Of a DNA stretch of 64,000 nucleotides, positions 55,069-55,557 are shown one piece after another (the first letter of the stretch is position 1; every line of letters begins with the position of its first letter). Origin of the DNA: Escherichia coli (GTDB lineage Bacteria; Pseudomonadota; Gammaproteobacteria; Enterobacterales; Enterobacteriaceae); the NCBI RefSeq assembly GCF_003334305.1, contig NZ_QOWS01000010.1, one strand, 5' to 3'. Position numbers and translations under genes: made by a program. The notes beneath the pieces were generated by a model, which did no database searches, was not told where the DNA came from, and was given only the letters and a program-made list of their open reading frames with translations.

Positions 55069-55350
55069 TCATTGTTTTTCCTCAAGCCAGTGACGCGCTT
55101 CACTGCGAATTTTCCGCATTGCCCCGGTTTTCACTAAATCCCGTAACAGCGAAAGATCGGGTTGTTCGACAAATAAGAGTAATGATGGATCCTCTTTTAA
55201 CCACGTCGTTTTCACATCGGCAGCGAGCTGTGGATTATTCATAGCTAGCGACCGATGCCGAGACTCGGTCAATGTCGTTAACAACGACGCCGGGGTATGT
55301 GCGTTGCGTAATGCCGTTTGGCGCAAATGATCATTGCGACTTTGCAGCAA
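55069..55350 (-). CDS. ykiA: Small uncharacterised ORF at the ykiA position (93 aa), possibly a gene remnant
   Basis: 93-aa ORF MLQSRNDHLRQTALRNAHTPASLLTTLTESRHRSLAMNNPQLAAD... between rdgC and ppnP, where K-12 annotates ykiA; no recognisable domain. Confidence 0.45.
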   Translation of the reverse strand: MLQSRNDHLRQTALRNAHTPASLLTTLTESRHRSLAMNNPQLAADVKTTWLKEDPSLLLFVEQPDLSLLRDLVKTGAMRKIRSEARHWLEEKQ

Positions 55351-55557
55351 TGCACGCCACCATTCATCATCTGATTTATCTTTTATCGTAGCCAGTTCCG
55401 CAACAATATCTGGAGATCTTCACTGATATTTATATCAACCTTGATGAATTATGAATATATCGGAAATTGAAAAAATCGCAGCAAAGGAAATATTATTATG
55501 GGTTAAAGAGAGGATATTTCAGAAAAATGCCCTCCCGTTCAAGGGGAAGGCGAGGAA

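Follow-up and report, generated by a model that had tools for sequence, protein, structure and literature searches.

Between rdgC and ppnP, in a 64,000-nucleotide stretch of Escherichia coli DNA (contig NZ_QOWS01000010.1 of NCBI RefSeq assembly GCF_003334305.1; hereafter the window), lies a 93-amino-acid open reading frame (ORF) that is almost certainly the known pseudogene ykiA, a gene remnant without function. The gene order here is mak-rdgC-[interval]-ppnP-aroM, with rdgC at 54000-54911 on the plus strand and ppnP at 55558-55842 on the minus strand, and positions 54900-55600 are 100% identical to strain A7 and ~97% identical to K-12-like strains. The ORF that the initial annotation had reported in this interval was recovered from the ORF listing at 55069-55350 on the minus strand, with a TTG start. 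Although that annotation had recognised no domain in the ORF, residues 13-93 give a significant match (E=4.8e-41) to positions 1-81 of the 81-position Pfam hidden Markov model DUF2773 (PF10971), which places the ORF in the DUF2773 family; this family carries no known function, and its model spans a C-terminal piece only. Homology to the parent gene reaches 60 nucleotides beyond the ORF start, up to 55410. As identified by blastn, translations and Pfam, the ykiA pseudogene thus occupies 55069-55410 on the minus strand and consists of the last 113 codons and stop of a 759-codon DUF2773-family gene, and the 93-amino-acid ORF is the part of it downstream of the first in-frame TTG.

The initial annotation had proposed a remnant of a larger ancestral gene and had called for a longer intact homologue to be sought in other Enterobacteriaceae. 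Both ideas hold up: a 759-amino-acid homologue is found in E. coli O157:H7, other E. coli and other Escherichia, it stands intact at the same ppnP-rdgC site, and codons 647-759 are what the window keeps. In O157:H7 (locus L003) the interval contains an intact 2280-bp gene (L003 3043-5322; 759 amino acids, WP_120795310.1) followed by a gene of the SF0329 family, 149-151 codons long, whose ATG overlaps the stop of the 759-codon gene. We mapped the deletions by blastn of the window against this locus, which gave three collinear blocks, and by setting the junction sequences side by side. Window positions 55416-55900 correspond to L003 5324-5808 (97.7% identity), directly upstream of the ATG of the long gene; 55042-55410 correspond to L003 3016-3384 (94.6% identity), which holds the last 113 codons together with the first SF0329 codons; and 54850-55050 correspond to L003 2451-2652 (98.0% identity), the end of the SF0329 gene and the end of rdgC. 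Lost from the upstream junction is ~1.94 kb (L003 3385-5323), that is, the ATG and codons 1-646, and in its place the window carries a 5-bp filler, TGGAG on the plus strand, at 55411-55415. All 10 of the remnant alleles that we aligned share this junction, as does an allele of the type seen at locus L004. The downstream deletion removes 372 bp, in frame, from inside the SF0329 gene; its junction at 55042-55050, defined by the overlap of the blastn blocks and by the junction sequences, falls on an imperfect 9-bp direct repeat that reads GCCGTAACT and GCTGTAACT in the intact allele.

These alignments fit the following course of events. The E. coli ancestor carried a gene for a 759-amino-acid protein between ppnP and rdgC, followed in E. 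coli by the SF0329-family gene. A single ~1.94-kb deletion, sealed with the 5-bp filler, then took 646 codons from the front of the gene, the ATG among them and 85% of its length, leaving behind the promoter region and the last 113 codons. The 372-bp in-frame deletion between the 9-bp direct repeats came later and reduced the SF0329 gene to the 27-codon ykiD.

What remains of the long gene has the hallmarks of a pseudogene. It matches just a portion of the longer gene that relatives keep intact at the orthologous site, and the start codon and translation-initiation context have been lost with the deletion that spans the ATG. Translation of the frame places an in-frame TGA stop at 55420-55422 on the minus strand, just upstream of the remnant, and between this TGA and the TTG at 55350 there is no in-frame ATG, GTG or TTG. 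The 113 remnant codons differ from residues 647-759 of the O157 protein at 12 amino acids. RefSeq labels 55069-55410 on the minus strand a pseudogene 'missing N-terminus', and in MG1655 ykiA (b0392) is listed as a pseudogene and ykiD (b4732) as a coding sequence; the pseudogene status of ykiA is therefore already known, and our analysis confirms the MG1655 annotation. The loss of the start codon context suggests that the remnant is untranslated, and the literature that mentions ykiA shows no protein product for it. We note that the deletion junction also creates a 15-codon, GTG-initiated ORF (VKISRYCCGTGYDKR*) in another frame at 55423-55376 on the minus strand, at approximately the ancestral start position; its use is without supporting evidence.

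The pattern of substitution separates the remnant from its intact counterparts. Ten remnant alleles (94-100% identity) were aligned and their changes polarised against intact alleles. The 7 synonymous and 26 nonsynonymous remnant-specific changes fit the neutral site ratio of 79:260 (binomial p=1.0), whereas the same codons in intact alleles show 21 synonymous and 19 nonsynonymous changes, a pattern that departs both from the neutral ratio (p=8e-5) and from the remnant (Fisher p=0.008). The intact gene is under purifying selection, with a ratio of nonsynonymous to synonymous substitution rates (dN/dS) of 0.11-0.20 across the whole gene and 0.22-0.29 across its last 113 codons. The ykiA remnant, in contrast, drifts neutrally, and the strains compared gave no sign of purifying selection on the short ORF. 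Further lesions accompany this relaxation in some alleles: one that is 99.6% identical to the window (L011) carries a 1-bp frameshift in the remnant, and three others (L013, L015 and L016) have a 3-bp deletion in common. Variable columns among the ten alleles make up 14% of the remnant, 15% of ykiD, 9% of the spacer and 2% of ppnP.

Comparison with other Escherichia indicates which form came first. In Escherichia sp. E4930, E. whittamii and Escherichia sp. E1V33 the order is aroM-ppnP-DUF2773 gene-rdgC with the gene intact, and their copies share 72-73% amino-acid identity with that of E. coli at a dS of ~1.2-1.3; the SF0329 gene is absent from the site in all three. Three Escherichia lineages outside E. 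coli keep the full gene in this position, and the long form is therefore ancestral. Further intact E. coli alleles diverge by up to 6.5%. Alleles were counted in 5426 complete E. coli genomes. Of these, 447 have the 5' portion of the long gene that the window has lost, which puts the intact gene at about 8%; 921 contain the interior of the SF0329 gene, and 501 contain the SF0329 gene together with the 3' remnant region at a coverage of at least 80%. At the same coverage the arrangement seen in the window occurs in 4544 genomes (about 83%) and is the commonest allele. An intermediate allele with the remnant beside an intact SF0329 gene accounts for ~54 genomes (501 minus 447), and an SF0329-only allele with the same TGGAG junction for ~420 (921 minus 501). 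A synthetic query for the intermediate (intact SF0329 gene, remnant, TGGAG junction and spacer) was matched end to end by strains EC2641, 88-3493 and others, and in strains of this type RefSeq calls an intact SF0329 coding sequence beside a truncated DUF2773 pseudogene. The existence of this intermediate led us to reject the proposition that absence of the long gene always goes with an inactivated SF0329 gene. In the SF0329-only form, the fourth allele (L004, L005 and L006), the TGGAG junction is present, the equivalent of window positions 55073-55392 is lost, and the SF0329 gene carries a +1 C frameshift. Read from the sequences, the series runs from the intact gene to the 1.94-kb deletion and then branches: one branch underwent the 372-bp deletion (the window and K-12 type, ~83% of genomes), and the other lost the remnant (~8%).

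Other changes have also affected the locus. Independent IS1-associated losses are seen at L022 and L023 (strains VL7S7 and CUWW06); in one strain IS1A takes the place of the whole rdgC-ppnP interval, and in another IS1B lies inside the DUF2773 gene, with an internal deletion. The O157 SF0329 allele (L003 2597-3046) differs from those of L007, L008 and L023 by one inserted base pair in a run of A close to the 3' end, which changes the C-terminus from ...KIIARRSE to ...KNYCPP and gives 149 instead of 151 amino acids.

The second product of this history is ykiD, which RefSeq annotates at 54989-55072 on the minus strand as a 27-amino-acid protein, YkiD in K-12-like strains. Translations and an alignment with SF0329 proteins identify it as the first 10 and last 17 codons of the 151-codon SF0329-family gene, and its descent from that gene is shown by both the DNA and the protein alignments. 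It keeps the ancestral Shine-Dalgarno sequence GAGGA, 7-8 nucleotides before its ATG, and this ATG overlaps the ykiA stop (ATGA). With its ribosome-binding site and ATG retained, the 27-amino-acid peptide would be expected still to be made, and YkiD has indeed been detected in K-12 by epitope tagging (VanOrsdel et al., PMC6001520). The transcript from the surviving promoter runs through the ykiA remnant, and along it just ykiD, itself another remnant, is clearly translatable.

Upstream of the remnant lies an AT-rich spacer (55416-55557, minus strand). The initial annotation was right that a neighbouring stretch is AT-rich, but misplaced it: on the coding minus strand it lies upstream of the ORF, not after it. 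GC content is 37% across 55351-55557 and 35% across 55411-55557, compared with 51% overall in the window; no more than 1.9% of segments of the latter length (147 bp) reach so high an AT content. The same annotation had listed the spacer with the ORF as a possible decayed gene. An origin from decayed coding DNA does not hold, since the stretch also precedes the intact gene, at 98% identity; the spacer is the regulatory region that stood in front of the lost gene, with the ancestral promoter and 5' untranslated region retained, together with the ppnP terminator. The latter is a terminator-like hairpin with a T-run at 55529-55551 on the minus strand, just past the ppnP stop, with an 8-bp stem that includes 6 GC pairs and is followed by ATTTTTCTGA.

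BglJ-RcsB has been shown to activate a ykiA promoter that lies in this intergenic region of K-12 (Salscheider et al., PMC3950696). Its start site was mapped by 5' rapid amplification of cDNA ends, the mutationally mapped binding site is centred 79 bases upstream, and a second predicted site, overlapping the core promoter, is non-functional (PMC3950696). The spacer of the window differs from the K-12-like allele at ~3 of 142 positions and contains promoter-like hexamers on the minus strand. A candidate BglJ-RcsB box, TTTTCTGA at 55519-55526 on the minus strand, matches the weak core motif wwTTCykA; placing this box at -79 would put the transcription start near 55443, with a putative -10 element CATAAT at 55453-55448. 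A second match to the core, at 55467-55460 on the minus strand, would then overlap the core promoter, as the published non-functional site does. The motif by itself is too degenerate to serve as evidence, with 36 matches in the window against 30 expected, which is not significant. The surviving promoter would still transcribe the remnant; its activation by BglJ-RcsB is known from K-12 only. Beyond ykiD, a palindromic element of the repetitive extragenic palindromic (REP) type lies at 54928-54963, between the rdgC stop and ykiD, and a similar element occurs near mak in the O157 locus. An Rfam scan returned only a sub-threshold REP/naRNA4 match, which falls on the element at 54928-54963, outside the feature (27.8 bits against a gathering score of 59.5), and a search for internal repeats found none.

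The intact parent is a large protein of which the remnant preserves little. Its homologues at close range are confined to Escherichia, apart from one 49% homologue in an enterobacterium, between sprT and galP, and an exhaustive HMMER search brought in 169 relatives, of which ~35 are full-length (735-820 amino acids, 23-35% identity). An AlphaFold2 model built from the family alignment (mean predicted local distance difference test score, pLDDT, 91; predicted TM-score, pTM, 0.79) begins with a signal helix and continues with a beta-helix over residues 67-176 and an alpha-solenoid over residues 240-759. By this model the beta-helix would be like that of bactofilins, the solenoid would resemble those of HEAT and leucine-rich-repeat-variant proteins, and the signal peptide would be of the Sec type. 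Signal-peptide-like N-termini occur in 28 of 44 aligned family members, and the parent protein is probably exported through a Sec-type signal peptide. The piece that survives as the remnant corresponds to about six confidently modelled helices within the full-length protein, and the Pfam DUF2773 model covers only residues 679-759 of the O157 protein; the definition of DUF2773 thus appears to derive from a gene remnant, essentially the portion present in the K-12 pseudogene. The 759-amino-acid parent had no match in PADLOC, PHROGs or NCBIfam (defence, phage and curated families), and a PDB sequence search gave none for either parent protein. Genomic context is not conserved among five full-length homologues, and guilt by association failed. 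The O157 SF0329 protein scores 93.7 bits against its family cut-off of 60, and relatives of this protein sit in recombinase-associated arrays that resemble orphan-immunity clusters. We also note an E. coli paralogue from O157:H7, A0A0H3JEL4, matched in the AlphaFold database, which is 770 amino acids long, 27% identical and of the same fold (TM-score 0.72). It is named 'DUF2773 domain-containing bactofilin', and many E. coli fragments of it are labelled 'Protein involved in detoxification of methylglyoxal'; tblastn found no copy of this paralogue in the window, and a profile search added nothing new.

We considered whether YkiA might instead be a genuine small protein, of 93 amino acids from the TTG at 55350 or of ~113, acting as a free-standing C-terminal helical module with a function of its own. 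Its frame is open in nine of the ten alleles, an inducible promoter drives transcription of the region in K-12, the helices of this piece are modelled with confidence in the full-length protein, and a Pfam family has been built on it. Certain observations also weigh against the pseudogene interpretation: the TTG at 55350 has GGTGG in front of it and might, in principle, initiate the 93-amino-acid product; none of the ten remnant alleles, a small sample, has a premature stop in the 113 codons and only one has a frameshift; and two remnant alleles show a pairwise dN/dS of 0.39, a value resting on only 14 changes that taken alone cannot exclude weak constraint. Nevertheless, the ancestral start codon and its ribosome-binding context are deleted, an in-frame TGA precedes the remnant, the lineage-specific changes fit neutrality and differ from those of intact alleles, a close relative is frameshifted, ~420 genomes do without the remnant altogether, and all curated annotations call a pseudogene. 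Lacking the ancestral start codon, and with a neutral pattern and a frameshifted relative, the small protein that the initial annotation had entertained is left unsupported, and we regard it as very improbable. More improbable still, to the point of being negligible, is the suggestion that the short form is ancestral and that an insertion or a gene fusion at this site brought the long gene into O157-type strains. The short allele is the commonest by far and the GC content of the long gene (42%) lies below that of the genome (51%), but the full-length gene is found at the site in three lineages at considerable synonymous distance from E. coli, the remnant starts mid-helix without a start codon, the first junction is marked by a filler, and the second lies on a direct repeat that occurs twice in the long allele.

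Two further possibilities concern what the locus might still do. It could be that the remnant DNA is non-coding but has been recruited to form the 5' leader of a ykiD mRNA under BglJ-RcsB control, with YkiD a functional micro-protein. The Shine-Dalgarno sequence and ATG that ykiD has kept, the inducible promoter, the detection of YkiD in K-12 and an ORF of 26-27 codons that is open in all ten alleles are in keeping with this. Yet the columns of ykiD are as variable as those of the pseudogene, its 27 codons show a shifted stop and seven or more amino-acid changes among the ten alleles, the peptide is made of the fused ends of a 151-amino-acid protein whose conserved core is gone, NCBIfam and Pfam models do not recognise it, and hundreds of genomes carry alleles without the fusion; we think it unlikely. 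Similarly doubtful is a joint reading in which the BglJ-RcsB promoter, the ykiA leader and the YkiD peptide together have acquired a new envelope-stress role, while, separately, the intact parent pair is a functional module whose presence or absence is polymorphic in E. coli. Going by the structural model, such a module could be a pairing of an exported bactofilin-like/HEAT-solenoid protein with the SF0329 protein. We retain the interpretation of ykiA as a decayed gene.

That the case confirms the pseudogene call made in the reference genome matters little in itself. The details added here are minor: the exact junctions, a four-stage allelic series, neutrality put into numbers, the origin of YkiD from an SF0329 protein, and the extent of the DUF2773 model. 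They do document stepwise decay, from an intact gene through a 5' deletion to a second, in-frame deletion or complete loss. Caution in annotation is also called for, as the DUF2773 model spans just the last 81 residues of a protein of ~760. Moreover, YkiD, a 'verified small protein', consists of the fused ends of a destroyed 151-codon gene, and detection of a peptide alone does not indicate a functional gene.

Lastly, the locus can be set against the systems it resembles. Bactofilins and HEAT or leucine-rich-repeat-variant solenoid proteins appear, from the structural model, to be analogues of the parent protein only, and Pfam assigns it nothing but DUF2773; bactofilins are cytoplasmic, whereas the parent has a predicted signal peptide, and the window keeps none of these domains. 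With respect to the SF0329 family (Pfam PF25753, NCBIfam NF049912), YkiD corresponds to residues 1-10 and the last 17 of the 151-amino-acid E. coli/Shigella protein, a conserved core of 124 codons having been deleted, and the 27-amino-acid peptide has no match among NCBIfam and Pfam models, that of the SF0329 family included. The remnant is orthologous to the intact gene for the O157 and E. whittamii protein and occupies the same site, but it lacks the start codon and residues 1-646, and with them the signal peptide, the bactofilin-like beta-helix and most of the ~500-residue solenoid that precedes DUF2773 in full-length members of the family. The closest likeness is to ykiA and ykiD of MG1655, with which the window shares the locus, the deletion junctions, a 342-nucleotide remnant and an 84-nucleotide ykiD, the K-12-like allele being 97-98% identical to the window across 54850-55900. 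The allele of the window, identical to that of strain A7, differs from both the K-12 and the intact alleles by lineage-specific amino-acid changes in the contexts ESRHRS, AMNN, GAMRK and RHWLEE, and residue 11 of YkiD is H in the window and R in K-12 MG1655.
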